DNA of 64,000 nt from Amphiscolops sp. MND2022. Lineage: Eukaryota. The stretch spans positions 2,046,001 through 2,110,000 of the forward strand of contig OZ076420.1 of the NCBI GenBank assembly GCA_964187785.1, in the 5' to 3' direction. Below, one piece after another: positions 22,435 through 56,102 of the stretch. The position numbers and the translations under genes were made by a program. The stretch's first letter is position 1. Each line of letters begins with the position of its first letter. The notes below the pieces were generated by a model. That model saw nothing but the letters and a program-made list of their open reading frames with translations. It was not told where the DNA came from and did no database searches.

Positions 22435-22906
22435 TTTTCAGTCAGCGCCTTTTCCCTTAAGGAGATAACCCGACTATTACAGTGAGTAGTTTTTTTCAGT
22501 TGACAATCTCACTCTGAGTGGTCCACTTTTTACAATTTGCTCATTTATTCAACTTCGACCAATTTTCTGAACCCGGAGAGCGTGGGTTCGATTCTCGCAC
22601 TAAACCACGAATTTTTTATGCTTCCAAAAGTAGAGGCGAGATCAAAGGGTCTACCCTTTGGGTTTTTTCGGCACTACGCGACTTTTTTCGAATTTTTTAA
22701 AATTTTTGAAATCCATCAAAGGGTACCCCTTGCATTTTTTTTGGTTTGTAAAAATGTTTAACGAGCCTAAATGGCCTCTTTTTGAGTTTTTCGGCATTGT
22801 GCGACTTAAAAAGAAAATTAAATCTTTCCAAAAGTTTCCAATAGTTGTTCCTTGAATATTTTTGAGCCTTAGATATGGCGCCGACTTGGGACGTTCCCGT
22901 CTTGTT
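22435..22906 (+). mobile_element. HINE/Helentron-like element copy
   Basis: TTTTCAGTCAGCGCC start; GCGCCGACT sub-TIR, GACG-TTCC-CGTC stem-loop, CTTGTT end. Confidence 0.65.
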
Positions 22907-23939
22907 CGCTTGTGGAATGAACAATCATTTTTTACGGATATATGTGCAGTTGTTGGAAATCTGGTCGCGTCATGACGACCCATTCAACAATTTGTGCTCT
23001 TTTGAGTGCCTTCTCACACCCAGTTGAGACTGCCTGAGTTTTTTACATGCCGCAGGCCTGCAATTTTGTTTATAAAACTCAGAAAGTTCATCAATGAACT
23101 TCCGGTGGTAAATCATGTACAAATACGATGCATTTTCCACTAGTGCTAATAAATTTGAAAATAAAATCCACTTCGTTACCGACACAATCACTTTGTATTT
23201 ACACTCTGTTTTCTCATCTACTCATTTGATGTGATCACTGCTTCTCCATTAGCACGCTAAACATGATGCTAATTTGCAGCGACAAAATTTACGTCTAACA
23301 ATATATCATAACGGTAATTTTTTACACCACTGCAGGTACTGTGCGTTAAATTAGCGGTGAAACGGTGTCGGGTCACAAGTGCGAAAGAATAAAATTAAAG
23401 TTTTATCGTTCAATAAGATTTCAGGAATCCAGCGTAAGAACTACTTAGCACTGTATAATTCTCTGCAATCTGATTGGCTGACGCGGGCGGACCGGAACGA
23501 ATTCCGTTCAAAGAATTTAAAAAACGAATTTTACAATTTCCCCTAGTCAGCTTTGTTCACATACTCCTAGTGCCCTAAATGCAGGAGCGAAGCGAAGCGG
23601 GGCGACGTGCCATATGGCCATGCCTCAATGTTTGCTACTTGGCGAAGGGAGCGAAGCGACCGAGCCATACAACAAATATGATATGTATTTTTTCGGACTT
23701 GTGCAACCCAAATTTATTTCGGACTTGTGAATAGCCGCCGGTAGAGCTGATAGCAACTCATTCAGCAACTGATGACACTTACAAAATTTCAAGGCTTAAA
23801 ATTGCTGCCTGGAGTTTAACTACTGAACGTTAATTTACTACTAAACAACTAGACCGGCAAACGAACGGGGAGCGCATTTAAGATAGTGCAAAGGGTCCTA
23901 GGTTCTAGTGCAAAGTTCAAGGTAACCTACAAAACCGGA

Positions 23940-24418
23940 CGAGACTATAGGGTCCCCCCTTTGAGTTTTTTTCGGCACTGTGCGACTTTTTTCGATTTTT
24001 TTTGTCTCCAAAGGGTCCCCCTTCAAGTTTTTTGATATTTTACAGCAAACTGAAGTTTGGAAAAGCCCAAAGGGTCTCCCCTTCCAAGTTTTTCGGCACT
24101 CTGAGGCTGGCTCAAAACTCGTATTTTTTTCGATTTTCGTTTTTTCGAAAATTTCCTAATGTCTCGAAAGGGTCCCCCTCAATTTTTAAAATGTTTTGCA
24201 ACATAATAGATATTTCACAATCCCAAGGGGTCCTCACTTTTAGATTTTTTGGCACTATGAGACTGTTCAAAATTGTTATTTTTTGTCTGAAATTAGGTTT
24301 TCTCAGTATATATCTACTAATATTTTTTCCCAAACTATCCGAAACTTGGACGTACTATCCTTAGTAAAGCGCTATATCCGAATTTTTGACGTTATATCCG
24401 AATTATATTCCGTTATAC
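23940..24418 (+). repeat. 5' part of a HINE-family repeat interrupted by the giant LTR element; continues at 43196-43385
   Basis: GGGTCCCC-type internal repeats; GCTATATCCG motif on both sides of the insertion; CGTTCCCGTCTTGTT end at 43385. Confidence 0.5.
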
Positions 24419-24764
24419 TGATATACCATGATTGATGCTATACTATAAATTATATTTATCCCCCCGCCCCGTGTATGTCTAGACTGTAAAACTACAATTG
24501 TACTCCATTCATATTCTAGATGTAAAATGATTGATGTAACCACTTTATATTCAATACCATAGATCGATGTAACTAATTTATATTCAATACTATAAACCTT
24601 CATTTAGAACACAACTTGAATTGACTCTTCACCGATTAGTTGTCTTCACTTTAAGACCTAATAACTGCAGCTCTATTAGTGTCTCTTAAAGTACTAATCG
24701 TAACATCAATAAAAAGATTCAATTCCTCGTATAACTAAAATACCAACTACAACCAAGTACTTTA
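24419..24764 (+). repeat. 5' LTR (TG...TA); TATAAA 24591, AATAAA 24708, 33-bp internal duplication 24533-24594
   Basis: Matches 42846-43191 except at 2 substitutions. Confidence 0.97.
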
Positions 24765-24766
24765 AC

Positions 24767-24778
24767 TGGTGCGACCAG
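24767..24778 (+). promoter_or_regulatory. Primer-binding site TGGTGCGACCAG (tRNA unassigned)
   Basis: TGG starts 2 nt after the LTR end. Confidence 0.75.
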
Positions 24779-24844
24779 CTCATTTCTTTCCTTCTCCTAA
24801 AACACTTTCTTCTTATTTCTCATTTTCCTTTCAAACAAACTTTC

Positions 24845-25093
24845 TGTACTAATCACACAACGTGATTCGACTCATTGTCGGTACACATCTGAAGTCTTCT
24901 GTACTAATCACCTTCCGTGGTTCGACCTAGTAGTCGGTACATTTCTTTCTGTACTAATCACTTTCACGTGATTCAGCTTTTTGCTGGTACACTATTCTTT
25001 CTGTACTAATCACCTTTTGTGATTCAGCTCCGTGCTGGTACAATCTCCCCTTCTGTACTAATCACCTTTGTGATTCAGCTTTCCGCTGGTACA
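24845..25093 (+). ncRNA. Array of five ~41-nt three-way-junction structural units in the 5' leader
   Basis: Each unit is TGTAC-T-[AATCAC loop GTGATT]-[CGAC/CAGC loop GTCG/GCTG]-GTACA, with conserved or compensated stems and variable loops. Confidence 0.8.
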
Positions 25094-25231
25094 TTTCCTT
25101 TTTCCCCTTAACCCCTTGTATCTTAGTTCGCCTGTAACGGCTCCACCTTTTCAACCCTTCTCCTTTCATTTTATATCATTTCCCTTCTTATTTTAAACAT
25201 CTCTCCATTTTCATCTTTTCCAAAATTTTCT

Positions 25232-25372
25232 ATGCCTTCTCTCAATGACTCTGTTTGTATTTGCCTAATACTCCTTTACTTTCTTGGTCTCTGTGCCATT
25301 GTTCTTCTTCTTCTTCTTGACAAATTTATTCTTCCTTTCATTCCCCATGTTTTTGACCAATATCGAACATAA
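25232..25372 (+). CDS. uORF1, 46-aa single-pass membrane peptide (MPSLNDSVCICLILLYFLGLCAIVLLLLLDKF...)
   Basis: First ATG downstream of the LTR TATA box; ~22-aa hydrophobic run then DK; G residues fall mostly in first codon positions. Confidence 0.45.
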   Translation: MPSLNDSVCICLILLYFLGLCAIVLLLLLDKFILPFIPHVFDQYRT

Positions 25373-25381
25373 TCTTTTTTA

Positions 25382-25495
25382 ATGTTCCTCACTGAAAACC
25401 TCGCCACTATCATCCTTTTCGTTTCCTACATTTTTGCAATGCTTGTTTTTTTAATGCTCCTCATTGAAAAAATTGTTGCATCCCTTTTTCACTAA
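25382..25495 (+). CDS. uORF2, 37-aa membrane peptide (MFLTENLATIILFVSYIFAMLVFLMLLIEKIVASLFH)
   Basis: Same frame as uORF1, 9 nt downstream; similar layout (Y...hydrophobic...EK). Confidence 0.45.
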   Translation: MFLTENLATIILFVSYIFAMLVFLMLLIEKIVASLFH

Positions 25496-25606
25496 TTCCC
25501 CTTTCTTCTGAAATTCCCTATCTCCTTCTCCCTTCTCCCCTTTCTACTTCCCCTTATTTCCTTTCTTCCTTTTATTACTTTCCTTTCTTTTCTCCTCCAC
25601 CTTTAT

Positions 25607-25843
25607 ATGAACCTCCTTTTTCTTCACTATAACCCCTTCTTCGCTCTTTTTCAACTTGTCTTCATTTCCTTTTTTCTTATTATAATACCCATATACATTC
25701 ATTCGTTTCTCTCTTCATTTTATTTTGCCCTCTTTAAAATAATTCATCGTTATTTCTTCCCTCTCCCAATTGAACCGTCAATTCACCCTGATATTATTAT
25801 GGATTGGATTTGGTTACATTATTTCCCTCATAGACACTCCTAA
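25607..25843 (+). CDS. uORF3, 78-aa hydrophobic protein whose stop overlaps the gag start (TAATG)
   Basis: TAA 25841-25843 overlaps ATG 25843-25845. Confidence 0.45.
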   Translation: MNLLFLHYNPFFALFQLVFISFFLIIIPIYIHSFLSSFYFALFKIIHRYFFPLPIEPSIHPDIIMDWIWLHYFPHRHS

Positions 25844-28487
25844 TGACTGATCCAATTCAACCTCTTATCCCTCTCCCCTTTGTTTTCAATACCTCTCAAC
25901 GTATTACCCGTGATGTTTCACAAACCCTCACTCAATTTCTTAACAATCTCATTTACAATTCCACCACTCCTCTTCCTTTTGAAACCTACCCCGAAGATAT
26001 ATATACAACTCCTCTTATTCGTGAACACCATGATTCATATTTATATTATAATGAAACCCATTCTCTTGTTCTAAATTCAGAAGAACCCCCATTTTCTATT
26101 CCCTTCACTTCTCTCATAAATCGCTCCGATACCTTTCGTAAAAACATCTACCCTAATAATATTTACATCCCTATCGCTAAAGTCTTTACCACATTCCTCA
26201 ATCATCTTCAAGAAAACAATAACCTTTTAACCAAACATGTTTTTAATCCTTCTTCCATACAGGACCTTCTTCAAAAGGAATCCCTTTTCAATCTTTCTAA
26301 TATTGAACAATTTAGAACTATTGAAAATAATCCTCACCATTGGCTTACCACTGATATTCTTCAAATTCACCATTTTCAATATCAATTCTTTCAAAATCTT
26401 ACCCTCAATACAAAAACCAAAGAACAAATTCAAATTTACTCTCTCTTCCTCCGAAAATTTTTTAGACACAATTACCAACTCGTTTGGCACTCAAAGTTCC
26501 AAGACGCCTGTATAAATTTTCCTCAACAGTTTTCTTCAGATGAATTTTTACCTTTTATTATTAATTCTGATAGCCAACACCAACAGTATTATAATCTCCT
26601 TGATTTTCCATCCTCTCATTTTCAATATCTTGCCTATGACTCCAATAGTCTTGATAAAAGTCTTAACCTTCCCTCTCCTATTCGTCCTTATACCCAACAA
26701 TCTTACCTACCTCCCTCAACTGATACAACTTCCAACATCTCAATTCAAACTCTTCCTTCATCTTCAAATGCTTTAATAAATCCCATCTCTCTTAATAATC
26801 AACATAATCCTACTTCTATTTCTCAAGTCACCTTAAATAATGAAAACCTCTCTCCTTCCAACTCTCCGAATCAATATAACACACCTTCTAACACTCCACC
26901 TGCTGTTCCCCCCAACTCAGTTTCACTCCCTACCTCCTCCATTCCCACATTACCCCCCATTCCCCTCTCTTTCAATAATACTCTTCATACTCAATCTTTT
27001 CCTCCAAATCCTCCAATCTCTTCTATTTCTCAAACTTCTTCTTCTACTACACAACCCACCCCATATAATCCTTATGTTTCTCTTTATCCAGCTTTTCAAA
27101 ATTTCCCCACTAATTCTCACCAACCTCCTCCTAACCCCCCTCAACCTACTCTTTCCACTTCAACAATACCTTTCAACTCTTCTTCTCTTCAGCCATCTCC
27201 TCCTTTTCCCACCACCCCTTCTGTCCTTTTGCTGCACTCTCTGATCCCATTAAACTATTTGATGGCCTTGACCATACTTATCCTCCTGAAAAATTCTTGG
27301 CACATCTTAGTGCTCGAGTAACATTTCAACTTGGACCTCAACCTGTTGATATTCACTCATATTTAACATGGCATTCTCGTCGAATGTCTCTCTTATATTG
27401 TTCCCTCACAGGAACTGCTTCTAATTGGTTTGATCGCCTCCCCCAAGTTTATAAAGATGATTGGTCATCTTTCCTCCAAATTTTTAAGAAACAATTCTAT
27501 TCCCAAAAACATGCATACCATGCTCAAATTGAAGCTCTTTCCCTTGTTAAAAAAGATAATGAAAATGTCCGTCACTTTGCTCTTAAAGTCGAAACACTTG
27601 TTAAACAAGGATGGTACAATGAATACCCGTCCACTATTAATCTTAAATGTAATGAAATTTTCACTCGTGGTCTTCCAAAAAAATTAAAAGACTTTGCCAA
27701 CAAACGCCAAGTTAAACATATTTCCAGTTCCTTAGAACCATCAATTCCTTTTCACTCTCTTGTCAATATGGTCGATTCCGAAGATATTACTCTTGAAAAA
27801 ATTAAAACTCAAGAACTTTCACTTGAAATAAACAATTTATCTACCACTTTTCAACAAAATACAAATATTCAAGATCCTCCTTCAGAACCTCCACACGTTC
27901 AGGTCATTGATCCGAACAATAAATCCAAACCTCAATTAAAAAAATATTGTTCCTTTTGCCATAAAATTATTAATCACTCTGTTTCAACTTGCTTTCGTCG
28001 CCTTAATTTACTCAAAGAATCGAAACCACAATCTCGATCTCCAACTCCTACCTTTTATCAACATTTTAAAACTCCTTCAAATAAATCTCGTTATCCTCGA
28101 TACCGTAGTCGAAGTCATAGTAATCCATCTCGCAAATCCTCTCGCGACAATCGCTACGACAATCGCTACCATTCTCGTTCTAATTCACGTTCACATTCAC
28201 GCTCTAAATACAACTATAAAACATCCTCTCGTACATATTCCCCTTCTCATAATCGTGATAGATCTAGATATGACAAACATTACCATCAAAATCCTTACAA
28301 ACCATATTCTTCTTCACGAACATATTATAACTCTAATTCTTCTCGTAGCCCATCTAAATATTATCCCCGTTCTCGTGAACGTGGCTCCAACTTTAATACT
28401 TCTACTTTTAACAGATACACCTCTCCTTATCGTCCTCCTTCTAAACCACGCAATGATCGTTATCGTAGCCGATCTCATTCAAATTAA
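25843..28487 (+). CDS. gag: Gag (~880 aa reconstructed; -1 frameshift near 27225): long N-terminal domain, P/S/T/N linker, capsid, Cx2Cx5Hx4C knuckle, RS-rich tail
   Basis: ORFs 25843-27321 and 27297-28487 join as ...PSV(P)FAALSDPIKLFDGLDHTYPPEKFLAHLSARV...; retrotransposon-gag motif LTGTASNWFDRL...W..F...F. Confidence 0.85.
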
Positions 28488-31400
28488 AATCACCCCTCTC
28501 CACCTCAATATAAACCTTCCTTAAATCTTACACATCCGTCTACACCACCCATTCAAAGCAACTCCCCTTCACAAACTCATTTTGAAATAAACATGTACCA
28601 CCCTAATCCTCCATTCCCTCAATCTTCTTCAACTTCTACTGAACATGCTAATGCTCTCACACCTTCCACTTGGTTTGTTAATTTATTTCTTTTTAAACCC
28701 AATGAAGATACCTCTATTCCCTCTAAATTAGAACTATTATTCTTACTTGACAGTGGAGCATCCATCTGTGTTTTAAATTTACCCACCTTCACCATTTTAG
28801 CCGATCATTTTTTAAAATGTTCAAAACACTCCCCACCTCAAAATGAATATAAAACTTTAACTGTTGCCAATAAATCTGAAGTACCTATTCTCCATAATCT
28901 TATACTTACACTTCATACCTCCCTCCAAGGAAATACTCGTACCCTTGTTATCCCCTTTGCAGTTGCAAATATTAAATATAATATTCTTGGAACTCCCTTC
29001 TTTGAAAAATATGTTAAAACCCTCAATATTGAAAGCATGTCATTAACATTCAATACCCCACATGAATCTCGTATCAATACTCTCCCTTTTACGGCTCATA
29101 AAGAAAAAGATTATCCATATTTTTCTTACATATACACCATCAATGTTAAAAATAAAGTTTATTTTAAACCAAATGCTTCTCAAATTATTCATTTTCCAAT
29201 TCAACCAACACTTCCTTTAACATTTAAAACTTCCGATAATGAAGTTAGATTTCCTTCCACACCCCATCCATTTTTTAACACACGCTTCAACTCCACCTTT
29301 AATTTCCTCCAAGTATATCAAAATACTAATACCGAACCTTCCAGTTGTTCTGTGATTATTCAAAATATCACACATCATTCTGCCATTCTTGCCCCTGGAT
29401 CTATTGGATACATTGAAGTTCCAGCCACTAATATTCAACCAACTCATTACAAAGTTAATGATGTTAACTCTTTAATACACACTGTATTTCATTCATATTA
29501 TCCTGATCTTTCTGAACCAAAACCTCCTCGCCGGCGTTCTTCTCTTCGAAACCCTCAAATTGAAATAAACAATTTGCAACCTTCTCAAATTTTAACCCGA
29601 TCTCTTCCACCATTACCATATTCACCAGACACTCAACAATTCCTTCATAAATTTAAATTCCAATACTCTGATGTAACTGATGAAGAATATTTACAACTTT
29701 GCTCCATTCTTGTTAAATATCGATTATGCTACGCTACACATAAAAATGATGTTGGCCGGATAGCTACTCCTTTTAGAATTCGTCTTAAACCTAATGCTAA
29801 ACTTCAAACTCAAAGACCTACCAAAGTTCCTATTCACTATAGAGAAAAATTAAAAACACTCCTTGATGAATTAGAAAAACACAATATTATTCGTCAAATT
29901 GGTTCCACTCATTCTGACAAATCCATCTATGGTACTACATTTTTAAACCCCCTTATTATTATCCCTAAGGGAGATACTATTAAAGTCGTTTTAGACGCAC
30001 GCCATCTTAATTCAAACACCGATCAATCTTTCGAATCTTGGCCTATTGAACCACTAGCCCCCCAACTTGCACGTGCTAACAAAAAATTCAAATCCGCTAT
30101 TGACCTTATGTACGCTTATGCCCACGCTCCTTTAGATGAAGAAACTATAACTTTAACAAGTTTCTCTTCTGGTGACAAACTTTACGCTTTCATCCGTGGA
30201 TTTTATGGCCTTAAAGGCTTACCAAATTTCTTCACCAAACAAATGCATTCATTCTTTCAAAAACTTATTGACCAAGGTTTTGCATTAGTTTATATAGATG
30301 ATATCCTTCTCCTCGCACATACAAAACCACATATGTTAACCTTAATTGAACAACTTCATCAAATTTGTCAAACAAATAATCTTAAAATTGCTCCTGAAAA
30401 ATCTTTCTATATCCTCCTCACCGTCAAATTTCTTGGACATGAAATCGGTAATAATACAATTAAACCTATCTCTTCTAAAGTTGATGCTCTTCACAAATTA
30501 AAAACTCCTACTTCAAAAACTGAATTAAAGCGCTTTATTGGATCAATGAATTTTTATTCTAAGTTCATCAACAAATTACACATCTCTTTAAAACCCTTTT
30601 ACACTCTTCTCCATGATGATATTCCATTCGAATGGACCCCCGATTTAGATAAACTTTTTAACCAAATCAAACTTTCTCTTTCTAAAGAAGCAGAACTTGC
30701 TATCCCAAATACAACTCATCCGTTTTATATAACTGTCGATGCCTCTTTAATAGGCCTAGGTGCAGTTTTATTTCAACCAAACTCCAAAAATAAAATGCAA
30801 ATAATTTCTTATAATTCTCGTATTTTAACAACCCAAGAACAAAAACTTTCTACCTATGATAGAGAACTTTGCGCTATTACCTTTGCTCTTTCTCAATATG
30901 AATTTATTATAATTGGCTCCAAATTTCCAATAACTATTTTTACAGATCACAATCCTATTCTTTTCCTTTTCACCCGTAAAGGTAATCTAACTCCTAGACA
31001 ATATAAAGCTCAAATGCTATTAACCAAATTTTCAAATTTACAAATAATCCACACAGCCGGTACAAATCTTACTGTTGCAGATATGCTTAGTAGAGATTTT
31101 TCAACTATTAATACCCAAACATGCCAACTTCAACACAAAACTCTTCCTCCTCATATTGATTTTCTTCAACTTAAAAATAACAATATTTTACAACCTATTC
31201 ACTACCTCGTAAAACATGAAGATGTTCTTCCTACACAAAAAAATGATTCACACCTAATTTTGGCTGATTACGGTGATGATCAATTCACACTTCGTATACA
31301 AGATAAAGGCAATGTTGTTAAATACACTCCTCTAGATTCCTTTTCATTTCAATCTGTTTCTTCATTCCTGAATAAATACAAAAAACCTGTCAAAAATAAA

Positions 31401-33737
31401 GTCAAAACCTTACTTCAAGAAAACCCCCCTTTAAATGAAACTGATTTATACGAAACAGACGATCCTGTTCTTAAACGTATTCCTCATCAGCATTCCCAAC
31501 CATCTCATGAACTTCACACTCTTTTTACCGAAATACAACACCATTATTTCAATGATATCAATTTGTCTCAAGACATCCTAACCAACTTTACCAATTCCTC
31601 TCCTATTATTAATAGTATTATTGAAAATAATGCTATAATTCAAACTACTCCAAAACCCATACACACTCAATCTTTACCATTTTTTGACCCCTCCTTCTTT
31701 GCTCATCGTAAAGCATTTGATAATTTCTTCCTTCCTTCTGACACGTTTCTCACAGTACCTATTTTACTCCAAGCCCAAAAGGATGATCCTGTCCTTTCTA
31801 CAGTATTTAAATGGTTAAAACAAAAACAAAGACCTCATTCCTTGTCTCTAGTTATTAAAGCTAACTCCTTTTTATATACATATTATAAACAATTTCAACA
31901 TTTATACCTTGATCCAAGTTCTCATCTTATTCAATATTATACTCCTAATTCTCGGGTTTTTGAATAAATCTTTATTAAAACTCAACCCTCTATTAACCAA
32001 ACACGTATATGCTTACCATTCAAACTTTTCTATGCTGCATTTAGTAAAACACATTCTCATGGTCATTCCGGTGAAAAACTCTCAATTAAGACATTTAATC
32101 AATTTTATTTCATCCCTCATTTACCTTTATGGTTCTCAATTTTCATCCATGACTGCATAGAATGTCAAACTAATAAGCATTTTCCTATTAAACCCCAAAA
32201 CATTTCTCCTCCTCTTCCTTTTTATGAGAATGCTACCCACTTTAATTACCGGATTTCTATGGATACTAAAGGCCCTATTTCTCCATCTTCACAAAACAAC
32301 TCCTATATTTTTGTCATCATAGATGCATTCAGTCATTTTGTTGTTACAAATCCAGCTCCTCATATTACTTCAAAATATGCTATTCAAACTCTTCTCCACC
32401 ATTGGATCACAAAATTTGGTCCCCCTCAATATCTTGTTACAGACCGAGGTACTGAATATATAAATCAAGATATGGCTCATCTATGCTCTCTTTTTCATAT
32501 TAATCACTCACCCCGAACTCCTTACTCTCCTTGGACAAATGGTTTAGTTGAAGTTCAAAACCGAAATCTTGGAACTCATCTTCGAATTTTTCTACAAAAT
32601 CCTCCTACCAATTGGTCATTTCAAACACAAATGTATGCATATGCTCATAATACGACACCTCTTTCTCAACTTAAACATTCTCCTTATCAGATTGTTTTCC
32701 ATACTCATCCTCGTATACCTCTCACCTTTTCTCTTAACTTACCTCGTAATGCTTCAAAAAATTGTATCGCAACTTATTGTGAATCTCTTCCCCCCATTCC
32801 CATTACAGCACCCAAGATCTTAATCCCTTCTTTCACTCAATTCTTGAAAAACCTATCTCCTCCTGGCTTTTAGCAGCTGAGACTGCAATGTTAGAAATAT
32901 ATTCCACTGTCCATCGTCATATAAATCATAAACTTAATTCCCTAAACAACTCACCTGAAACAATTACCTCTTAATACATTTGTCATTCATACTAATTTTA
33001 AACCTGTTAATTTTTCAAAAAAGCTCAAACCTCTTCGAATTGGCCCATATAAAATACTTAACCATCTTTCTGAAGTAACATATGAACTCCTTTCTCAAGA
33101 CGGCTCTACCTTTCAAACCCATCGAAATCATATTATACCATATTATCCCAAAGAACCTATAATTTTTCCCTATATTAAACATTACTACTCTACTCCTTCC
33201 CTTATTAATAATCCTGATACTGAATCTTACCAAGATACCTTCTCTCGCTTTTCCTCCTTAGAACCACTCCAAACCTCAAATCAGTCTCAAACTCTTACAT
33301 CTTCGAATCATAAAAAACATAACAATTCCCCCACTTCCATCCCTACATATCAAAACCTTTCCAGGTATTCTTCTTCACAAGATAACTTACATAATATTCC
33401 CCCTTCTACCCCTACTAACCAAAACTCTTTACATTCCTCTCCTTCCTTTCACAATACCCTTGACACTACTTTTGACTCTCAAGACTCTGACTCTGAAATG
33501 CTTCCTAATCCAATTTATTATTCAAATTCCTCAAATGATTCTTTCCCCCAATTCTTTCCTCGTATTGCTGATTCTTCAAATCTTTCATCATCATCTCCTT
33601 CACTTGATCCTCTAGATATACCTAATTCTCCAAATGAAACTACTTACACACGAGCTCCTCACTCTCCTTATAATCTACGTTCACTTCCCCCCCAACAATA
33701 TAATCCCACAAAACCAAACATCAATTTTCCCCCCTGA
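28488..33737 (+). CDS. pol: Pol: protease, RT, RNase H, HHCC zinc finger, integrase, GPY/F tail; nonsense codon at 31965 and frameshifts near 32790 and 32950
   Basis: LDSGA 28746, YIDD 30291, TVDAS RNase H, HSHGH...CIEC in frame after TAA 31965, D-D(35)-E counted from TDRG to NGLVE, IGPYKI. Confidence 0.95.
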
Positions 33738-33986
33738 TTAAATATTCATTTTTAATTGAATTTCCTACCCTTCTATACTGACGTTAGTCTAGACTTCTAA
33801 TACAGTCTGACGAATGACAATTTAATTATGACAATGTAGTTAGTAATTGTCTCTTATACACCTTTCTTCACTTTATCTTGCTGAATTTAGCTGAACGGTT
33901 GCTCTAATAAAAACTTGATTTCATAAAAAATAAGTCTTAAATTTTCTCAGACCTTTCTTCAATATTTCCTCTCCTCTCAATAATAA

Positions 33987-35412
33987 TCTTTCTCCATCCC
34001 TTCATATTTAACCCTCTCTGTTTTAACACCACACAATTTTCTATTTTCTAAAACCACCCCAATAAACTTTCATTTTGTTTCCATCCTGGATCTTACTGTA
34101 TTTTTGTCTGATTCCTCCTCTCAACCTTCTTCTTCTGTTTCAAGTGATACTATACCTTCATCACAAAGTTTTTTACCAACTTCTCAACAACCTCCCCTAA
34201 ACCCTACACCAATCACCCCCTCTTTAGATACCACCCCTGTTAACACCCCAAGTCACACTCCTATTAAAACTTCTGTTCCTCAACATACTCAAACTTCTTT
34301 AACTCTCCCACTTTCTGATACTGAATTCCCTTTTGATATAACCCCTGCCCATTCTCCCCCTCCTTCCTTTCATATCCCTGACCCTAGCGATATTAATTCT
34401 ACTCTCCTACGCAATATTAATAATCCAAACATTCCTAAATCAAATCTCATACCTACCTCCATAAAATCTTTCCGTAGACGTTCCCAATTAGATCATTCCT
34501 TTTCTATTCCTCCACCTTGTTCTCATACTTCTTCTAAATCTTCACTCCCCTTAGCTAAACCACTAAAAATTCCTGCTCTCGAATCCCTTGATTCTCTTCA
34601 AAAGAAATCTGATTTAAGTGAAGTTGATTCAACTACTTGCTCTCTCCTCTATCCTCGTCTTCCTCCTTCAAATTCCGCCTCTAAATACACCACTTCTTCT
34701 TTAGATAACCTCCTCGACAAAACCTCCGAATCTACTCTTCACCCACCACTTCGTCACAGATATAACCTTCGTAATAATCGTCGTCTTTCCCCTTCTCTTG
34801 AACTCTTCTCTTTTACGTCACCACGCTCAATCTCTTTCTTCCGAATCTCTAACAGCAAATTCTCCAACTTCCGGAATTGACACTGCCTTTTCTCAACGTT
34901 CTTCTATTTCCTCTTATACTCACACTGGTCACCTTTTCTCTCGTCCCACTTCTCAAAACTCCAGTACTCTTTCATCTGACAGCCATATACTTAATATTGA
35001 CCTTACTACTGACCAATACTCTACTCCTCCTACACCTAATCGTGTCGATTACCCTTTAATCGTAAATAGCACCCTTGTTAACAACCCCCGCCAAGACCCT
35101 CGTTTTCTCTACCTTGCAACCCATAAACTTAATTCAAATCCTCACATCTCTGATGCACGCCGTCGTAAAGAATTTCTTCGTCTTGAAGATACAAATTTAG
35201 AACTCAAATTTGAAATTACAGTAAAATTCCATAAATTAAGCCCCCACCCTATTCCTTCACATACAACAGTTCATTTTAAATCCCTTCCTCATCCATTTAT
35301 TACCACAAATCTTAACCTTTTTGTCAGCGACCATCCCCCCTTCCGTCTTCTACACGGTTCAATCACTTTTCTTAATACCCTAACGTTTTTAAAATATACT
35401 GCACAATTTTAA
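33987..35412 (+). CDS. ORF-X, AUG-less Ser/Pro-rich protein with a structured-looking C-terminal ~100 aa (frameshift near 34800)
   Basis: Overlapping open frames 34104-34880 and 34798-35412, neither with an in-frame ATG; stop lies 1 nt before the env ATG. Confidence 0.6.
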
Positions 35413-35413
35413 C

Positions 35414-37792
35414 ATGCTCTCTTCCTTTCTTCACTCGTTCTTTTACTTCCTTTCTTCCTTATTCTTAGCTTTTTTCCAAATTACTCCCTCTCCTGATCAT
35501 GTGGATCCCAACGATCCTCATATATCGGATCTTTTAGTATCTCATTATGACTGTTCTAAACAACACAATTTAAGACAATTTAGTCTTACCAGAGTCCAAC
35601 CTTGTGCTCAGGCTCCGTCTGCTTTTGAAAGTACTCGTGCTATTGTTGATGTTTTTGTTCGTGCTAAAGCTAAACGTCTTAAAGCCTGGACTTGTGAAGC
35701 TTATGTTAAACGTGAAAAATTTGTCTGTGCCCAATCCGATTACAAATACCGTCGCCATGATCGTACGGATTATCACCAAAATACTATGGAACGCCCCCGT
35801 ACTCTCGATCCTACTGAATGCAAACATGCTATTCGCCATTTAAATGGTACTAATAATCCTCAACTTGATGCTTTTAATTACTCCAACTCTTTTACATTTT
35901 TCAATGATATTCAAAAACAACGCCTTTTAGAAACAAAACAACCTCCCTTTCGTATTACTAAACTCAATACCTTTCACTATGGTGCTTTTGCTTGGATCAG
36001 CAATTCCCAATTAGTTTTAAATTCTACTTTAAAAGAAAAAGCTGTTTGTTGGGATCGCTATGAATATATTATCGAAAAAGATAGTTGGTCTCTCATCGTT
36101 AAAGAAATTGAAATTACTTATGATGATAAAGATAACAAACTTATTTACCATGGACATACCTTACCCTGCCTCCATGATGATGGTTTTTGCAAACCAACTA
36201 TATTAACACCTTTTACCATTGTTTGGTTTCCTGAAGACCTTTGTTTAATATTTTCCATACATTCTTTTATTGGTAGAATGTCTAAACTTAATAATCGCTA
36301 TTGGCTTGAAACTGAACACTTTTTTAATAACCACTCCTCCACTATTTCAACCGATACTCCTTATCATGATACCAAATCTCAAACCCGTCTCTCTCGTTTT
36401 GAAATTTTCCCTGAAAATAAAATGTTTTGTAATAAACCGACTCCTCTACATCTTACTCAATATCCTGATCTTTTTATAACATATAAAGAAGGATTTAATA
36501 TGCAAACTGGTAAACCCAATCCTCTTCAACTACCGCAAAATGAACAATATAATCAACTTACTACCCAGTTAATATCTGGAAAATTAATTCATACCCAAAA
36601 TAAATTTCTTTTCCCTGCTTTAAATTCTTCCAATAATTTTGCCACTATTGACTATGAAGCCCATATTAATACAAAAATTGACTATTCTATAAATCATGTA
36701 TTTAAAAGCATGTCTGTTGCCGAACTTAACACCCTCCATACTATATGTGAAGTCGAAAGAACTCAACTTTTAACCATTCTCGCCATGTCCGTAAAAAATC
36801 CACAACTTGCTGGTTTTCTCTTAACTCAAAACCGTAGTAACTTTTTATATGTCGAAGGCTCTACTGCCTGGCTATACGACTGTCCTCATCATCTTTCACC
36901 TCTTTATATTGCAGACCAATGCTATGACAAAATTCCTGTTAATTATCTTGACACCGTCATGTATGTCGACCCTATTACACGTCAAACTTTTGAGTATGCT
37001 AATCAAATTCCTTGTGAAAATAATCCTCAAAATGTAATATCTCTTGACCCTGATACCGATCAATATTATGTTTTAACTCCACAACCTATTAAAAAAGATC
37101 CTCCTCTTCTTTTTGAACCGACTCAAATTCAAACTGCTATTAGTCCTAACACCTTTACCGCTCAAGATGCTGGAATCTATTCTCAAAAAGAATTGAAACA
37201 TTTTTGGAATCGTGTTTTATTTACTAAACACTCCGACAACACTCTTCAACTCCTTGGAAAAGCTATTAGCTATGAATTCATGAATCAACAATCTGATAAT
37301 TCATTTCCTGATAATCCTTACCGTTCACTCCGAATTGGTCTTCATGACTATATGTTTAACTTAACTCCATTTTTTTCACCTGATTGGTTCACCGATGCTT
37401 TCATAAAACTTTTTGGCTACCCATGCTATATTTTAACCCAATGTGGAATTTATTTCTCTACCGCTCTCTTCCTACAATTTGCTTTCAATACACTCTTTAG
37501 TATTTATCGTTCATTTACTGTTCGAAATTTGCTTAAAAAACAAATCTCTGTAATTACTGCTTTAGGCTTTGGTTTCTTTGGAACCATTACCCAAACAATG
37601 ATGACTGCTATGATTAAATCATCCAATTCACCATCAGATCCTAACGATTCAGATTCCCCCCACTCCCCATTGGCAAAAACCCATACCCTATCTTCTAGTC
37701 CCAAACCTCGTCCACCCAAATACCATACGAATATTAAAACGAAACTCCTTAATTTAAAAAAACAAAACTCCAATGCAAAGATTTTCACCTAA
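35414..37792 (+). CDS. env: Env-like type I membrane glycoprotein, class III fusogen-like (herpes gB / chuvirus G family); tail probably continues in 37773-38168
   Basis: N-terminal signal peptide; YDC...FSL..VQPC...C...C; ICEVER...EGSTAWLYDC...CYDKIPV...DPITR...IPC; C-terminal TM (IYFSTALFLQFAFNTLFSIY). Confidence 0.85.
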   Translation: MLSSFLHSFFYFLSSLFLAFFQITPSPDHVDPNDPHISDLLVSHYDCSKQHNLRQFSLTRVQPCAQAPSAFESTRAIVDVFVRAKAKRLKAWTCEAYVKREKFVCAQSDYKYRRHDRTDYHQNTMERPRTLDPTECKHAIRHLNGTNNPQLDAFNYSNSFTFFNDIQKQRLLETKQPPFRITKLNTFHYGAFAWISNSQLVLNSTLKEKAVCWDRYEYIIEKDSWSLIVKEIEITYDDKDNKLIYHGHTLPCLHDDGFCKPTILTPFTIVWFPEDLCLIFSIHSFIGRMSKLNNRYWLETEHFFNNHSSTISTDTPYHDTKSQTRLSRFEIFPENKMFCNKPTPLHLTQYPDLFITYKEGFNMQTGKPNPLQLPQNEQYNQLTTQLISGKLIHTQNKFLFPALNSSNNFATIDYEAHINTKIDYSINHVFKSMSVAELNTLHTICEVERTQLLTILAMSVKNPQLAGFLLTQNRSNFLYVEGSTAWLYDCPHHLSPLYIADQCYDKIPVNYLDTVMYVDPITRQTFEYANQIPCENNPQNVISLDPDTDQYYVLTPQPIKKDPPLLFEPTQIQTAISPNTFTAQDAGIYSQKELKHFWNRVLFTKHSDNTLQLLGKAISYEFMNQQSDNSFPDNPYRSLRIGLHDYMFNLTPFFSPDWFTDAFIKLFGYPCYILTQCGIYFSTALFLQFAFNTLFSIYRSFTVRNLLKKQISVITALGFGFFGTITQTMMTAMIKSSNSPSDPNDSDSPHSPLAKTHTLSSSPKPRPPKYHTNIKTKLLNLKKQNSNAKIFT

Positions 37793-38481
37793 TTCTTCTC
37801 CAAGTAAACCTATTTCTTCTCCTATTCCACATTCTACTCCCACTAATACTGAAGATCATTTACTCCCACCCCCACATTATAATTCTCACCTTTCATCTCA
37901 TAATAATCTGTCTCCTCGACCTCCTCAAATACCTTCATTAACTTCCTCTTTATATTTGTATAATTCTCCTCCTCCTGATGACACCAATTGTGATAATTCT
38001 TCAAATGATTCCCCCATACATAACCTATGGCAATCTACAAAACTTTATCCCCCTACTCCGCCACCAATTAAAACTAATGACATCCCCTTAACTTCTGTTA
38101 ATAATATTTTTGACCCCTCTGACAGTCCTGTCAAAGTTTATTCTTCTTGCCGTTTTCCTCCTGAATAAATTTTCATTTCTTAATTTCTTCATTCCATATC
38201 CTGCATATTAATACTTTAATTTACTTACCTCCAAATCAATTTTACATATTAATATTTTACCTCCTTTACATACTAATTATATATATCGTTACCTTTTTCC
38301 CATTTCATTTGTAGTCGTTTTTGCTTTTTATTTGGTCACTTCTTTCTCTTCTCCAAAATCACTCAGCTTTCACATTTCATAACATCCTCTTTTGCATCTA
38401 CATACCTTTTTCAAACTACTGATACAACGTACGTTTGTTTCGCACTCAACTTTTGTCTTAAACTCCTTTCGTGATTTCAAA

Positions 38482-39968
38482 ATGACAAATATGAATCCTG
38501 AAGAAGAACTCTTGTCCAGTATAGCTTCATTGTCACCCCCCTTTCTCTTAAATCTGGTACCCTCGATATTCCTCTTGTCACTGACTCCTCGCTTCCTCTT
38601 GATTCTAACCCCACACCAGAACCCACTTTAAATGGTACTTCTACAACTTCGCAATCCCTTAATAAACCATCTTCTGTAAATCTTAAAACTCGTCATTCTC
38701 CTACCCCGCCTCCTAATAACCTTCATTTTACTGTTGACAATCATCAAATTCCGCACAAAAAGAAATATAATATTCTTGAAGATCCCGTCTTCATTGCTTC
38801 TGGTATCCTCCCTCCAACCCTTCACCCATTGAAAACTCCTTCCCAATCTAATACAATGACCGACGAATTTCTTGGCACACATCCCAATTTTAAAGCCAAT
38901 CTTCCTTCACTATATATGACTCCTACATCTTATAAATTTCGTTTCCCTCAAGATCGTAATTTTGATCATTATGTCGCCTATGCTTCAAAAAACCTACCAC
39001 AACTTGCTTTCTGGCAAAATAATCGTATTCGTTTCTTCCAATTTCAATTCAATCTTCTTGAACCAACACAACATGATTTAAATACCAATCCAAATGATAT
39101 TACCACCACTCGTTCTGTTAAAAAACTTCACCATCAAACCTACCAACTTTTTTTAGAACAAAAACATCCCCAAAATTTTATTTTTCAAAATCACAAATTC
39201 ACTTCCCCGTTTTCCTACCACTCTCACTATTCTTTAAATCATCTCTTCACTATTGGAACAATTCGAAATTATGATCCAGTTAAACAATATTTTATTCTTT
39301 CTTCTTACCATGATCCTACTCGCCCGTTGTTTGTTCCTCAAGAAGCTCTTAATGTAAATGATGACTTTCTCCTCCCAACTCATATTCCTAACGCTGTTCC
39401 TAACTTCTTCCCCAAAATGAATAAATTAGTTGAAACACCTCTTGACGATCACTCCCGCTCTTTATATACAGCTCTTATTCACAAACACTATTCTCTCGCA
39501 CAACTCAATTTTATTATTGCAAAACTCTCCTCCTTTATTTTGAAAAAACAATATAAATATTTCTCTTTAAATGTCTCTGATGAAATTCTTCAAACTCTTC
39601 CTAAACATACTCCTCCTAATACAGTAACTGAATCTTCTCAGGCTCCTCCTCCAACAATCCCTCCTCAATCAAATTCGTATGTGCTTCAGACTACAAACCC
39701 TAATGTTTGTATCAACTCCTTCTCTTGTCCTACAGATAAATTTGTCTCCGAAATTCTCACTCTTCTTCGCCCTCATGTTGAAATTGCTCCTAATACTGAT
39801 CCATTTGTTATTTTAAATCACATTTTTGACACGTTCCGTACTCTCCAATCTTTACTTCAACTTCATTCTTCAGATATCCAAAATTTGACCCTTTCTACAA
39901 TTCATGTTAATGATTTTCACAAAAAACTTGTTTTACTTGAAACTCCTCCTCAATTGACTTCATCTTAG
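38482..39968 (+). CDS. ORF-Y, ~495-aa unknown accessory protein (frameshift at the C6 run 38536-38541)
   Basis: ATG 38482; after the C-run the frame of ORF 38829-39968 is open from 38541 with no stop. Confidence 0.7.
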
Positions 39969-40618
39969 CATTCTTCTTTTCCAGAATTTCTTTTCTGTGC
40001 ACTTTCTCTTACAGTAATTCTCTCATTTGGTAAGAAATCAAACCTTTTCTATTAAACATCCTTCCTATATTTCCCAACATTTTTCTCCTATTTTGTTTAA
40101 TGATTCGTTTTCTTCTCCAAGCCTCTTATCTTATACTTTCAAAACTTTCCTCAACTCTTTTCCAATCTTTAACAATAACTCTTTTCACTTCCTCAATCTT
40201 ATCTTCTTTGACTTTAATACCTAATTATATATACATATAATTTCATTTCCTTCCTCCTCATTTACATATATCACTCCATTTTCCTTTCACTCTGACACTT
40301 CTTCCTATTAACTTCTTTACATTTAAATACTCTCACTTGACATTTTTAATCGTTCTTCTTTTAAAAATTTTGACAACAGGCTCTTCATCTTTTAATTCTA
40401 TTAATTTTAAAGTAATTTCCTTTTCTCATTTTTTTTCTTCTCATTTACTCTTTCGAAATCTCTCAACTTCACTACTACTACAAAATTTTCCTTACTAATT
40501 TTCAACTCATCTTCTTAAATCAATAAATTTCATCACAACATTTTCTTTCTCTATATTAAACTACTCTCTAGTATTTACAATAAGTACAAAATAATTCTAC
40601 AATAATTTTGTTTTAGTC

Positions 40619-41440
40619 ATGTCAGATTATCCTTCTTCTTCTCTGGCATACCCTCTCCTTAACCAACTCCTTGACTCTCTTCCGCCATTTCCTGTCTCTT
40701 CTACTTCTTCGACATTCACACTCTCGACCATGGATACTTCTTTGTCTGTAGCATCATCATCAGATACTTCTTTGTCTGTGGCATCATCATCATCATCATC
40801 ATCTGTTTCTTCAACTCCTACTATTCAACCGCCACTCAGCTCTCTTGTGACCACAACTACTCTTCAACCGCCACTCAGCTCTCTTGCGACAACAACTCCT
40901 TCTCTCCAAATTCCCGTGATTTCTTCTCTTCCACATCCAACTTTGTTGCCAATCTCCACTATTCCCCTGCACCCTCACGATGCAGTCGCAACTTCTCCCA
41001 ATCTTCAACAATTTTCAGCTGTCCGACAATTGACGCACGATCTTCAAATCAAAAAACCACGGCACCCCAAACGTCCACAGCTCTCAAATGGAAACGGTCC
41101 ACCTGTCCGTCGACTGGTCCACACAGTGGTCTACAAACAGAAACTTTCACAATATATCGACGCACTAAAAATGTACGAAAAACATTTAGATGAACTCATT
41201 TATCAAACTACGCTCCAATTAGATATTATTAATAATAAACTCCCCCATTCAAAATTACGTAAATTTAAATCGCCTCCCTTCACACATAGACCTTTATCCC
41301 CATTGACTATTCAAATCCCCTCTCATAATTGCTGTCACTATAACAATTACATTCAATGCACTACCCCCCATTGTTCCCATGTTCCAGTAAAATATACATG
41401 TCCTTCTCCTTTACCCCCCTCTCTCTTTCCCCCGCATTAA
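40619..41440 (+). CDS. ORF-Z, 273-aa accessory protein (S/T/P-rich, basic KKPRHPKRP, coiled coil, Cys/His cluster); may extend to 41538 by frameshift
   Basis: ATG-initiated 273-codon ORF; internal in-frame 30-bp and 39-bp duplications. Confidence 0.7.
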   Translation: MSDYPSSSLAYPLLNQLLDSLPPFPVSSTSSTFTLSTMDTSLSVASSSDTSLSVASSSSSSSVSSTPTIQPPLSSLVTTTTLQPPLSSLATTTPSLQIPVISSLPHPTLLPISTIPLHPHDAVATSPNLQQFSAVRQLTHDLQIKKPRHPKRPQLSNGNGPPVRRLVHTVVYKQKLSQYIDALKMYEKHLDELIYQTTLQLDIINNKLPHSKLRKFKSPPFTHRPLSPLTIQIPSHNCCHYNNYIQCTTPHCSHVPVKYTCPSPLPPSLFPPH

Positions 41441-42845
41441 TTCCCATTCGTATTGAACCCGTAACACCACCCTCTCAATCCCCCACTCCTTTAAATGATT
41501 TAGATAATTTAGTAACTTCCTTAAACGATGTCGATTGAACTTTGCCCTATGTTTCTTTTAAATTCATTTGTACATTTTGTTCAAAATCATCTATGCTTCT
41601 TGGTGTTTTCATACATTTCACCCCGCCCCCTACCTACATTGATTGTCACCCCCCCACCCTTTTATTTTCAACATTTCACCTTCTTTTTTAATGATGATTT
41701 AAAATTTTTTCTTTAGTGTTAAACAAAATTTTTCATAAATTTCTCTTATAACTTCGGTTCTACTGGACATAATTTTCTAAATTACATATTCCCATGCCCC
41801 TTCCGACCCAATCTCTTCCAAATTGTGGAGCTATCTTTTTCTATTCAATTTTATTCCACTTCAATAAACATTTTTTTCAACTAAATTCCAATTTTTAACC
41901 TTTCTCCCAAAAACATTTTTAACTTTACTCCTCTATAACTTCGGTTCTAAAAAATCTCCTCTTTTTTCCTTACTCTTCCCAATTCACATATTCAAACACA
42001 CTCACCTCACTGACAAACTCTTCATCCTTTGCCAATTCTGCAACTGAATTGGTTCGCTCAAAAATTTTGAAAAATGTGTGAAATGACCTGCCACATGATC
42101 TAAATTTGAACAAATGTTGACTCACATAGATTTGTTTTCGCCGCCAACTTTGATCTAATCACGCCGCCTTGTTTTGAAGTTCTACAATTTCATTTTCGTT
42201 GCTCACAAGCCAAGACTCAAAAAAGATCAACGCTTAGTTAACAAACAACTAAGAATCTTTTGTCTTCCATGTTGAACTTCTCTGTCAATCAGGCTGCCAA
42301 AATCTTGCCAAAATTTTTCTGTCACACTCCCGCCTGCCACTCAAATCTTTTGCCGCCTCGGAAGAAAACTAAACATTAAGAAAATTTAGAATGAATTCAA
42401 TACCAAAATAAATCTTATGTGAAATTTCATACCCATCACCAACATGAACGTAAAAGCAACTCTAAACAAATGCTTATTTTAAAAACTCCAAATAAATTCT
42501 CTAACTTATTGATCAAAATTACCTAATTTCTGGAAAATTTTCGCTTCCCAATGTTGCACGTAACTCACGTAAGGAAAGATACAACACGAAGACAACTTTC
42601 AAGACAATTTCCAAGACAACTTTCTCTTGAGATATAAAAATTTTTTTTCCATAAAAATTTATATTAGCAAATACCAAATTTCCTTTTTAACCAAATACCA
42701 TATTTCCTCTTTAGATTTTCTCGTATTATACATTAAACCAATCTCCGACAATTTTAACAACACCCCAACTTTTGAATATACACTAATCAATCTTAAATTT
42801 AACACCACAGTTTACTTCCATTTTTAATTTCAAAACCCGGTCGGA

Positions 42846-43191
42846 TGATATACCATGATTGATGCTATACTATAAATTATATTTATCCCCCCGCCCCGTG
42901 TATGTCTAGACTGTAAAACTACAATTGTACTCCATTCATATTCTAGATGTAAAATGATTGATGTAACCACTTTATATTCAATACCATAGATCGATGTAAC
43001 TAATTTATATTCAATACTATAAACCTTCATTTAGAACACAATTTGAATTGAATCTTCACCGATTAGTTGTCTTCACTTTAAGACCTAATAACTGCAGCTC
43101 TATTAGTGTCTCTTAAAGTACTAATCGTAACATCAATAAAAAGATTCAATTCCTCGTATAACTAAAATACCAACTACAACCAAGTACTTTA
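42846..43191 (+). repeat. 3' LTR (TG...TA)
   Basis: 344/346 identical to the 5' LTR; followed by TSD ATAC. Confidence 0.97.
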
Positions 43192-43943
43192 ATACCAAGG
43201 AGGAGGCGGAGGTTCGAAAAGCGCTCCCATTTGGGCCAGCACGCTATATCCGTAGTTTGAGACGTTACACCCCGCAACAAATTGGATTTTCAAAAACCCA
43301 AAGAGTCCCCCCTTTTACAATTTCAAAAAGTTTGAGCTTTTAGATACTCAGATATGGCGCTGACTTTAGACGTTCCCGTCTTGTTCACCATTGTTTGCCG
43401 TTTCACGTACGTTGTATTCAAAAATAGTGGTACCGATTGGCTAATTCCCGCTAACAGACTGATTTCTTCGTGTTTGGGCTCTTGAATATGGTTTTCGAGA
43501 CTTGTTAGTAAACATTCATATAGACTTCTTTGCTCTGATTGTTGTATAATATTTGTAGTATATCTGTTCGCTTTTTGTTCAGTTTCTTTCGCTATAATGC
43601 GGATTGTTTTTGCTTCAACTGTTGGAATAATATGTAACCTTCGTACTGTATATTGGCTGTTACTTTTGAAAAGCATTTTCATGTCGTCAAAATGTCAAAC
43701 TGAAACTGGAGCGCGGAAATGTCTACTTTGATATCTAAGGAAAGTTTCCAAAAATTTCTCACTTAGTTTCAGTTTGTCACAATTCAATTTTGTTGAGCTA
43801 GACTTTTTTTCGGAATTGTTCTGTCAAGATACTTTCAAAAAAAAGTGGGCTTTGAAATTTTCTGCGGTTTTCTTGATAGCGATAGACTTTTTATGTCTTT
43901 ATACTCTTAGAATATAAGCCTGATATTTCCATTTGCATACTTC

Positions 43944-45894: not shown

Positions 45895-46024
45895 GTGGCG
45901 TTTCCTCCATAGTTACAGCGTCAAGCATTCAAAAATTGGGGTGCGCATGAGGCTTAGGATTAGGACGTAAATTGTATCTTCCTGTTTTTCTTGGATTATA
46001 TCCAACAGTTATGGGCGGTAGAGT

Positions 46025-47593: not shown

Positions 47594-47935
47594 TGTGATA
47601 GACTCAAACCTAAAACTTTCAAATAATAAATCGGAATTGCCTCACCGGGATTTGTGGAAGAAAAGATGCTGTTCTTTTGATTCCAGTAATTTCGATTTAA
47701 TTTGGATTTAATTTCGATTTATTTTGCTCGTTTCCAAAATAAGATTGAACCAAATCATGAATAAATTTGACACTGAAATCTGAATGCAAAAAACAATGAC
47801 TCATGCATCAAAATCAAGAAAGTCAATCAAATCAATTTCCAGAATATTGTCCCCGTCGTTTTGCAGGGCAAAACTGAATCGGAAGTGGTATCGTCTCAGA
47901 ACATTCAGATCTTCGACATGAGTTCCGTTCAATGG

Positions 47936-54306: not shown

Positions 54307-54601
54307 GGAACTTGATGTGATAGACTCAAACTTAAAACTTTCAAATAATAAATTCGAATTGCCTCACCGGGGTTTGTGGAAGAAAAGATGCTGTTCTTTT
54401 AATCCCATTAATTTGCTCGTTTCCAAAATAAGATTGAACCAAACCATGCATAAATTTGACACTGAATTCTGAATGCGAAAAACAATGACTCATGCATCAA
54501 AACCAAGAAAGTCAATCAAATCAATTTCCAGAATAGGGTCTGCGTCCCGTTCGTTGCGTTTTCGGGCAGTTTCTTTGATTGCTCCAATTGCGTAAACTGC
54601 T

Positions 54602-55867: not shown

Positions 55868-56102
55868 CTGTGTTGGGTGGTATTTTGAATATTTTTGTTA
55901 CCTAAGTAGATAGCTTTTGTTGTTCTTTTTCGTATATTGCTCGTTGTTTGCTTAGTGCCTTTCTGGCAAAAACTTCTTGTTCTGATTCTTCTTCTTCGTC
56001 TGGTAGGAAAATAGGATGTTCTTCATCGGCGATATCCGTTGATTGTAGATTGAGTTCGATGGGCGTCGTTATGATGTCGTCCCGTAGTTTAAGTTGTACT
56101 TT

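Follow-up and report, generated by a model that had tools for sequence, protein, structure and literature searches.

A decayed copy of a recently active env-carrying Ty3/gypsy family with six additional open reading frames under purifying selection in Amphiscolops sp.

The window analyzed here, 64,000 nucleotides (nt) of contig OZ076420.1 of Amphiscolops sp. MND2022 (assembly GCA_964187785.1, positions 2,046,001 to 2,110,000), contains a large Ty3/gypsy element whose features are listed in Table 1. Two long terminal repeats (LTRs), which differ at 2 of 346 positions with no gaps, a target-site duplication and a candidate primer-binding site (PBS) enclose a gag-pol gene, an env gene and six additional open reading frames (ORFs), namely three small upstream ones (uORF1–3), ORF-X between gag-pol and env, and ORF-Y and ORF-Z behind env. 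The original prediction had noted the paired LTRs, the duplication and the PBS, and its coordinates for the element proved exact. Its arrangement of the ORFs on one strand with six extras also stands, with the exception that gag and pol, listed there as separate genes, form one frame of about 2,640 amino acids (aa). The window copy itself is decayed. Stop codons interrupt it at 28485 and 31965, and its reading frame changes near 27200, 32800, 32950, 34800, 37750, 38500 and 41430; part of these lesions may be assembly errors. That the layout as a whole arose from misassembly was rejected. The PBS sequence TGGTGCGACCA is found at all seven 5' ends of copies. No polypurine tract precedes the 3' LTR in the three copies compared, where the 14-mer AAAACCCGGTCGGA occupies its position instead. 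The missing tract is an oddity that does not exclude membership of the Metaviridae (Ty3/gypsy), whose LTRs, short target duplication, PBS-like site and order of gag followed by protease, reverse transcriptase (RT), RNase H and integrase are all present here. The 14-mer contains GGTCG, the complement of CGACC in the PBS. The forward strand of the element is poor in G (1,585 of 18,773 nt, 8%), with a GC skew of −0.3 to −0.7 that is confined to the element and ends sharply at the LTRs.

Table 1. Features of the element in window coordinates (TM, transmembrane; dN/dS, ratio of nonsynonymous to synonymous substitution rates)
Feature	Position	Strand	Remarks
Ty3/gypsy element	24419..43191	+	18,773 bp
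Target-site duplication ATAC	left 24415..24418, right 43192-43195	.	flanks the element on both sides
5' LTR, TGA...TTA	24419..24764	+	346 bp; direct-repeat scan
TATA-like sites; AATAAA	24444, 24591; 24708	+	within 5' LTR
PBS TGGTGCGACCA	24767..24777	+	2 nt past 5' LTR; candidate
Three-way-junction RNA units	24845..25093	+	five units of 40-42 nt; folding z -6.16, 0/100 shuffles as good
uORF1	25232..25372	+	46 aa; one TM helix (hydropathy only); dN/dS 0.08
uORF2	25382..25495	+	37 aa; one TM helix (hydropathy only); 92% aa identity between subfamilies
uORF3	25607..25843	+	78 aa; one TM helix (hydropathy only); dN/dS 0.10-0.17
gag-pol	25843..33737	+	~2,640 aa in family, broken in window copy; Pfam, frame lengths
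ORF-X	34086..35412	+	444 aa from CUG; frame change near 34800 in window copy; dN/dS 0.10-0.11
env, predicted chuvirus/gB-type fusion glycoprotein	35414..38168	+	PF24664; frame change near 37750 in window copy
ORF-Y	38482..39968	+	495 aa; frame change near 38500 in window copy; dN/dS 0.05
Pyrimidine tract + AG, candidate splice acceptor	40605..40618	+	two bases ahead of ORF-Z start; 3/3 subfamily stretches
ORF-Z	40619..41538	+	about 300 aa; frame change near 41430 in window copy; dN/dS 0.26-0.30
AAAACCCGGTCGGA	42832..42845	+	conserved, at polypurine-tract position; identical in 3/3 copies
3' LTR	42846..43191	+	346 bp; direct-repeat scan

To place this copy, the genome (1.07 Gb in 1,929 contigs) was searched, and the resulting counts are lower bounds that cover the best candidates only. 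There are at least 136 matches to the N-terminal part of gag (gag-N), 40 to pol, 89 to ORF-X, 57 to env, 88 to ORF-Y and 142 to ORF-Z, which fall into a near group and several subfamilies at greater distance. Both further copies in which the two ends are available have the same LTR ends and 4-bp target duplications, with LTR mismatches of 0/320 and 4/310. The low LTR mismatch in these copies and in the window copy indicates recent activity; the family is young, with many near-identical insertions, and the window copy is a dead member of a family that is not old. Stop-free frames of 2,600–2,660 aa contain 16 of the 40 pol and 36 of the 136 gag-N matches, and gag-pol is therefore a single polyprotein. 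It comprises an N-terminal domain, capsid, zinc knuckle, RS-rich stretch, protease, RT, RNase H, integrase, an SH3-like domain and a Ser/Pro/Thr-rich tail containing YNLR. The Pfam matches along it are, in order, PF03732, PF00078, PF17917/9, PF17921, PF00665 and PF24626, and a Tf2-like SH3 domain is matched in pol. The protease region has no Pfam match and was placed by its LLDSGA sequence, which we take to be a protease motif. Among solved structures the RT is closest to that of Ty3 (E value 2.6e-35), with 126 bits compared with 66 bits for foamy virus Pol. The N-terminal domain of about 290 aa (25843–26700) is under selection and has no Pfam match; a long Arg/Ser/Tyr-rich stretch follows the zinc knuckle (28020–28480), and a β-rich stretch without Pfam match lies between protease and RT (29100–29450), where other Gypsy elements carry dUTPase-like domains.

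The six extra ORFs are genes under purifying selection between subfamilies. The material consisted of partial sequences of two diverged copies and a further four 5' ends, and changes were counted pairwise at synonymous distances (dS) of about 0.8–1.2 between subfamilies. The dN/dS values of the extra ORFs range from 0.04 to 0.30, compared with 0.15 for gag-N, and the third-position excess and a dN/dS far below 1 are seen in the true frame only. In shifted frames the proportion of nonsynonymous changes exceeds or nears that of synonymous changes, stops appear and the signal is gone. The value of 0.04 belongs to uORF2 and comes from a single unsaturated cross pair, two of three cross pairs being saturated; that of ORF-Z at 0.26 comes from one pair, the ORF-Z of the other diverged copy being broken. 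The claim of up to six accessory ORFs is borne out in the other copies, where 69 of 89 ORF-X, 81 of 88 ORF-Y and 124 of 142 ORF-Z matches are without internal stop, and uORF1–3 are present at all seven 5' ends, with uORF1 frame-changed in one. All three uORF starts have a pyrimidine at −3, and the stop of uORF3 overlaps the gag start as TAATG at 7/7 5' ends. No Pfam match was obtained for uORF1. The core of ORF-Y, with a dN/dS of 0.03–0.04, is the most conserved among the ORFs measured. ORF-Y has 30 database homologues with identities down to 40%, and its profile finds 530 representatives, mostly fragments, together with a distant intact family of 543 aa and 29 members; it gave no Pfam match, no usable ESM Atlas match for the core and no relatives in metagenome contigs. 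A conserved splice acceptor was not found for ORF-Y in the three subfamily stretches. ORF-Z is composed of a Ser/Thr-rich N-terminal part, a basic helical middle and a Cys/His patch. Behind it, in the 1.3-kb 3' untranslated part, a block at 42050–42400 is 72% identical between subfamilies compared with 63–64% for its flanks and is a possible cis element.

ORF-X differs from the other genes in its start. It has no methionine, and its protein conservation begins at a CUG, where CCATCCTGGATCT is found in 19 of the 20 near copies and where A at −3 and G at +4 provide a strong context in both diverged subfamily stretches. From this CUG to the ORF-X stop, a distance of 1.33 kb, 13 of 21 copies have no ATG in any of the three frames, and the other 8 have a single one (21 of 22 copies were counted, one locus not being delimitable). 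Codon shuffles of ORF-X contain 6–7 ATG (three subfamilies, each with P ≤ 0.0005), and the other ORFs of the element have 7–21 per kb. The env ATG follows 1–7 nt past the ORF-X stop. Together, the CUG start, the AUG-free run and the adjoining env form what appears to be a signature of leaky scanning to env. Rice tungro bacilliform virus likewise combines a non-AUG start with an AUG-free run for leaky scanning, of 895 nt compared with 1,330 nt here, but is a plant pararetrovirus without LTR or env and serves as an analogy only (PMC3542737). The ORF-X protein is a single frame of at least 440 aa in 17 of 20 near copies, with a Ser/Pro/Thr-rich N-terminal part that contains LYPRL and YNLR and a conserved C-terminal domain of about 125 aa. 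The motif YNL[RC] is retained by 43 of 51 near homologues and by 8 of 14 distant ones (shuffle rate 0.005), and the foamy virus (PFV) Gag peptide GGYNLRPR has been reported to bind the nucleosome acidic patch and chromatin (PMC12125541, PMC6021111). In total 65 database homologues of ORF-X were found, with identities down to about 30%; there was no Pfam match above the cut-off, and the C-terminus had no usable match in the ESM Atlas. One database ORF-X–env fusion protein (one member) is read as a mutated copy. ORF-X as an extension of pol was rejected, pol ending at 33737 and the ORF-X frames beginning some 250–350 nt later in the copies, as was a division into two pieces, the frame being single in the family.

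The env product is predicted to be a chuvirus/gB-type (class III) glycoprotein. It matches PF24664 (Monjiviricetes fusion glycoprotein) with 95 bits against a cut-off of 27 (E value 2.9e-27), and a baculovirus F-type env was rejected, PF24664 being the sole Pfam match. The protein has a signal-like N-terminus, 14 ectodomain cysteines, C-terminal hydrophobic helices and a long tail with PPxY, a motif present in 3 of 4 full-length homologues. Both PPxY and the LYPRL of ORF-X are taken by us to be late-domain motifs of the endosomal sorting complex required for transport (ESCRT). Selection on env is strong, with a dN/dS of 0.06–0.10 overall (ectodomain) and 0.06–0.08 for its N-terminal part between subfamilies. 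Because 36 of the 57 env matches lie within stop-free frames of at least 923 aa, the stretch 37773–38168 (131 aa) is the env tail, and its reading as a seventh extra ORF was rejected. Searches of the PDB by sequence gave no match, and no relatives were found in viral contigs.

The leader between PBS and uORF1 folds into an array of three-way-junction units, of which other copies carry 3–6. The stems are constant and the loops variable, and between units a double swap from CGAC/GUCG to CAGC/GCUG is observed. No Rfam match was obtained (E ≤ 1), and a hammerhead identity was rejected, the core that presumably defines this motif being missing. From its position, the array is a candidate packaging/dimerization or export signal.

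Taken together, we consider that the window copy is decayed and belongs to a complex, env-carrying Ty3/gypsy family of endogenous metaviruses that was active recently and follows the model of expression and infection set out below, and we assign this reading a probability of about 0.72. The transcripts, translation routes, infectivity and protein roles of the model are deduced from sequence. Full-length RNA from the 5' LTR would be marked for packaging or export by the leader array. Ribosomes would scan through the three weak-context uORFs, each of which would yield a small membrane protein, and would reinitiate on gag-pol through the TAATG overlap. A bicistronic subgenomic RNA would serve ORF-X and env, with inefficient initiation at the CUG and most ribosomes reaching env over the 1.33 kb. 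ORF-Z may be expressed from a spliced RNA and ORF-Y from another subgenomic RNA, probably by an internal start since no acceptor is conserved. Particles would bud with env, PPxY and LYPRL acting as ESCRT late-domain-like motifs, and would spread between cells of the same host, probably from soma to germ line. The ORF-X protein would most likely act as an adaptor associated with the virion that, like foamy virus Gag, uses YNLR for tethering to nucleosomes, and its synthesis would be coupled to that of env. The products of the uORFs may resemble viroporins or assist fusion, and either Y or Z may be a regulatory protein for export or anti-silencing. Each of these assigned roles, for X, for the uORF products and for Y or Z, stands below even odds. 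The original prediction of a large endogenous infectious-type metavirus is supported, with "infectious" suggested by the conserved env.

A number of points weigh against this reading. Expression, particles and infection are putative, the evidence consisting of DNA. The dN/dS values are from single pairs by counting, among three subfamilies and seven 5' ends, and dS is near saturation for uORF2 and uORF3 in some pairs. Eight to nine upstream ATGs precede the gag AUG, which is many for pure scanning, and the gag start may instead be reached by shunting, by an internal ribosome entry site or on a spliced gag RNA. The roles of X and Y are argued from short motifs. Of these, LYPRL-type YP.[LIF] in ORF-X is weak (shuffle rate 0.2), as is PPxY statistically in the Pro-rich env tail (0.22), and the pol tail also has YNLR, so ORF-X may be dispensable for tethering. 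Models by AlphaFold2 were too poor to help, with a predicted local distance difference test (pLDDT) score of 32 for the ORF-X C-terminal domain (single sequence) and of 38 for ORF-Y (12-row alignment), too low for a fold search. No furin-like site was seen in env.

The last point is also compatible with a family that has the same genes and replicates in the germ line without being infectious, using env and the small membrane proteins for local membrane fusion or host manipulation. Extracellular particles are putative, and in MDG1 elements, which have no env, a small membrane protein is described as serving direct cell-to-cell transfer (PMC11952523). However, the low dN/dS of the env ectodomain and the retention of 13–14 cysteines in this env and three other lineages at 27–53% identity are as expected for a working fusogen, and we regard non-infectious replication as unlikely. 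Slightly less probable still is that ORF-X forms the second exon of a spliced gene with an upstream AUG, similar to Tat/Rev or CERV, and has no CUG start. In every subfamily AG dinucleotides precede the CUG by 30–290 nt, the export protein CERV of Cer1 comes from a spliced RNA (PMC10309623), and the low dS of the first 100 ORF-X codons (0.39) hints at an overlapping signal. Yet no acceptor position is conserved, protein conservation starts at the CUG, the upstream frame varies in length from 453 to 531 aa, and splicing alone does not explain the missing out-of-frame AUG.

That the extra ORFs are by-products of a G-poor, stop-poor strand, or nested insertions, has a negligible probability. The strand composition does favor such frames, and T/C-rich DNA reads as hydrophobic or Ser/Pro/Thr-rich by default, but the frame controls refute this origin. 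In 200 shuffles each, the longest frames reach at most 256 aa for the ORF-X region and 206 aa for that of ORF-Z, and X and Y have homologues at 30–48% identity. Nested insertions, against which the original prediction had cautioned, are contradicted by the fixed places of the extra ORFs across copies and by a repeat scan in which they had no terminal repeats of their own.

The PF24664 profile has 123 matches in the genome, with env frames of 700–950 aa. Two examples that were fetched belong to other Gypsy lineages, each known from one copy, whose pol is 36–37% identical to that of the window element; neither gave a match to X, Y, Z or gag-N. The first of them, the second lineage of the genome, is about 19.4 kb long with LTRs of about 2 kb that are 98% alike, separate gag and pol, a weak Macro-domain match inside pol (E value 0.13), a pol-env gap of 4.9 kb that contains several ORFs, and a further two ORFs behind env, of which one encodes a MATH/TRAF domain. 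The third lineage has a coiled-coil-like ORF of 524 aa behind an env frame of 821 aa. GC skew is mild in both (−0.11 and −0.17). Elsewhere in the window, a non-coding interspersed repeat family with GGGTCCCCC-type motifs occurs in both orientations (6673–8818, 22450–24400, 43200–43385 and 61540–62169), and the element is inserted inside one of its copies. On the reverse strand at 47900–53000, translations contain integrase, RNase H, RT and gag pieces of a decayed Bel/Pao-like element, bracketed by repeats at 47594–47857 and 54316–54546. Another decayed Gypsy pol (46586–47272 and 56100–57730, reverse strand) is apparently split by this insertion, and a repeat pair at 43951–45899 and 58978–60799, 80–95% alike, may represent its LTRs.

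Among described systems, the closest are Ty3/gypsy elements with a gB-type env, reported across animals as HSV/gB-type "ancient errantiviruses" by Chary and Hayashi (PMC13524379), which share the Ty3/gypsy pol, the gag-pol-env order, the gB/chuvirus-type env and the many near-identical copies. Their description also includes a bridge of RNase H plus a "mini" domain and a pol tree. The window element differs in its 18.8 kb and six extra ORFs. The pre-filters given in that paper removed regions above 10 kb, pol-env gaps above 1 kb and LTR pairs more than 14 kb apart, and the words "accessory" and "extra ORF" are absent from its main text. Classical errantiviruses such as insect gypsy have a baculovirus F-type env in place of the PF24664 type. 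Burro/GYPSM1 of planarians and Ogre of plants are likewise giant Gypsy elements with extra coding capacity, and Burro has an env that resembles mononegavirus fusion proteins and a MATH domain, as has the second lineage above; however, Burro encodes env and extras in one polyprotein of 4,873 aa, compared with eight separate frames here, and Ogre owes its size mostly to its LTRs, with 1–2 extra ORFs (PMC6431247). Elements of the MDG1/412 group carry small ORFs ahead of gag (sORF1 and sORF2), one of which encodes a membrane protein, but no env, in contrast to the three membrane micro-proteins and env of the window family (PMC11952523); inspection of uORF1–3 found neither an sORF2/FAST-like N-myristoylation motif nor a polybasic patch. 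Single extra ORFs are known from bdelloid ORF3s and from Cer1, a Gypsy element whose regulatory accessory protein CERV is made from spliced RNA (PMC10309623), and Oikopleura Tor is a Gypsy element with env from an internal promoter (PMC4402516); by their descriptions, not by sequence comparison, Cer1 and Tor have at most one accessory gene. Foamy viruses and foamy-like fish endogenous retroviruses are also large through accessory ORFs, with a YNLR motif (PMC6431247, PMC12125541), but belong to the Retroviridae, from which the far better fit of the window RT to Ty3 sets the element apart. Complex retroviruses have a retroviral RT and a class I env, neither of which is found here, and the resemblance seen in the original prediction holds in layout, with its six selected extra ORFs. 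The Bel/Pao element Anakin combines a chuvirus env with a Bel/Pao-type pol, whereas the window element has Ty3-type domains and no Pao-type Pfam match. The family is best classified among the gB-type errantiviruses, as a complex variant that is new, and not as a retrovirus, a classical F-env errantivirus or Burro. A literature search, with Repbase, Dfam and GyDB outside its scope, turned up no description of an element that combines six separate extra ORFs under selection with a CUG/leaky-scanning env cassette, and no case like that of ORF-X and env in a Gypsy element. The chance that the family is already listed but unremarked in a database or survey supplement is about one in four.

Complex sets of accessory genes are usually associated with vertebrate retroviruses. 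The element described here is about twice the usual size, and the layout of its extra genes is more like that of complex retroviruses, such as foamy virus, than of ordinary retrotransposons. Six selected extra proteins in an active Gypsy family would mean that accessory complexity arose separately in the Metaviridae. Size filters kept this class out of the largest survey made of Gypsy elements with env (PMC13524379). More tentatively, and with somewhat less than an even chance, there may exist an undescribed radiation of infectious "complex metaviruses" of about 19 kb with class III env, which reached a complex-retrovirus organization independently and would combine accessory sets specific to each lineage (six ORFs in the window family, other ORFs and a captured MATH domain in the second lineage of about 19.4 kb), a CUG-started chromatin-tethering X expressed with env by leaky scanning, three viroporin-like micro-proteins, a multimeric RNA element for packaging/export and a priming of the plus strand that needs no polypurine tract. 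The family yields three new protein families (X, Y and Z), three conserved membrane micro-proteins, an RNA array and the putative CUG/leaky-scanning env cassette, and its more than 100 copies in subfamilies make the gain of accessory genes traceable within one genome.

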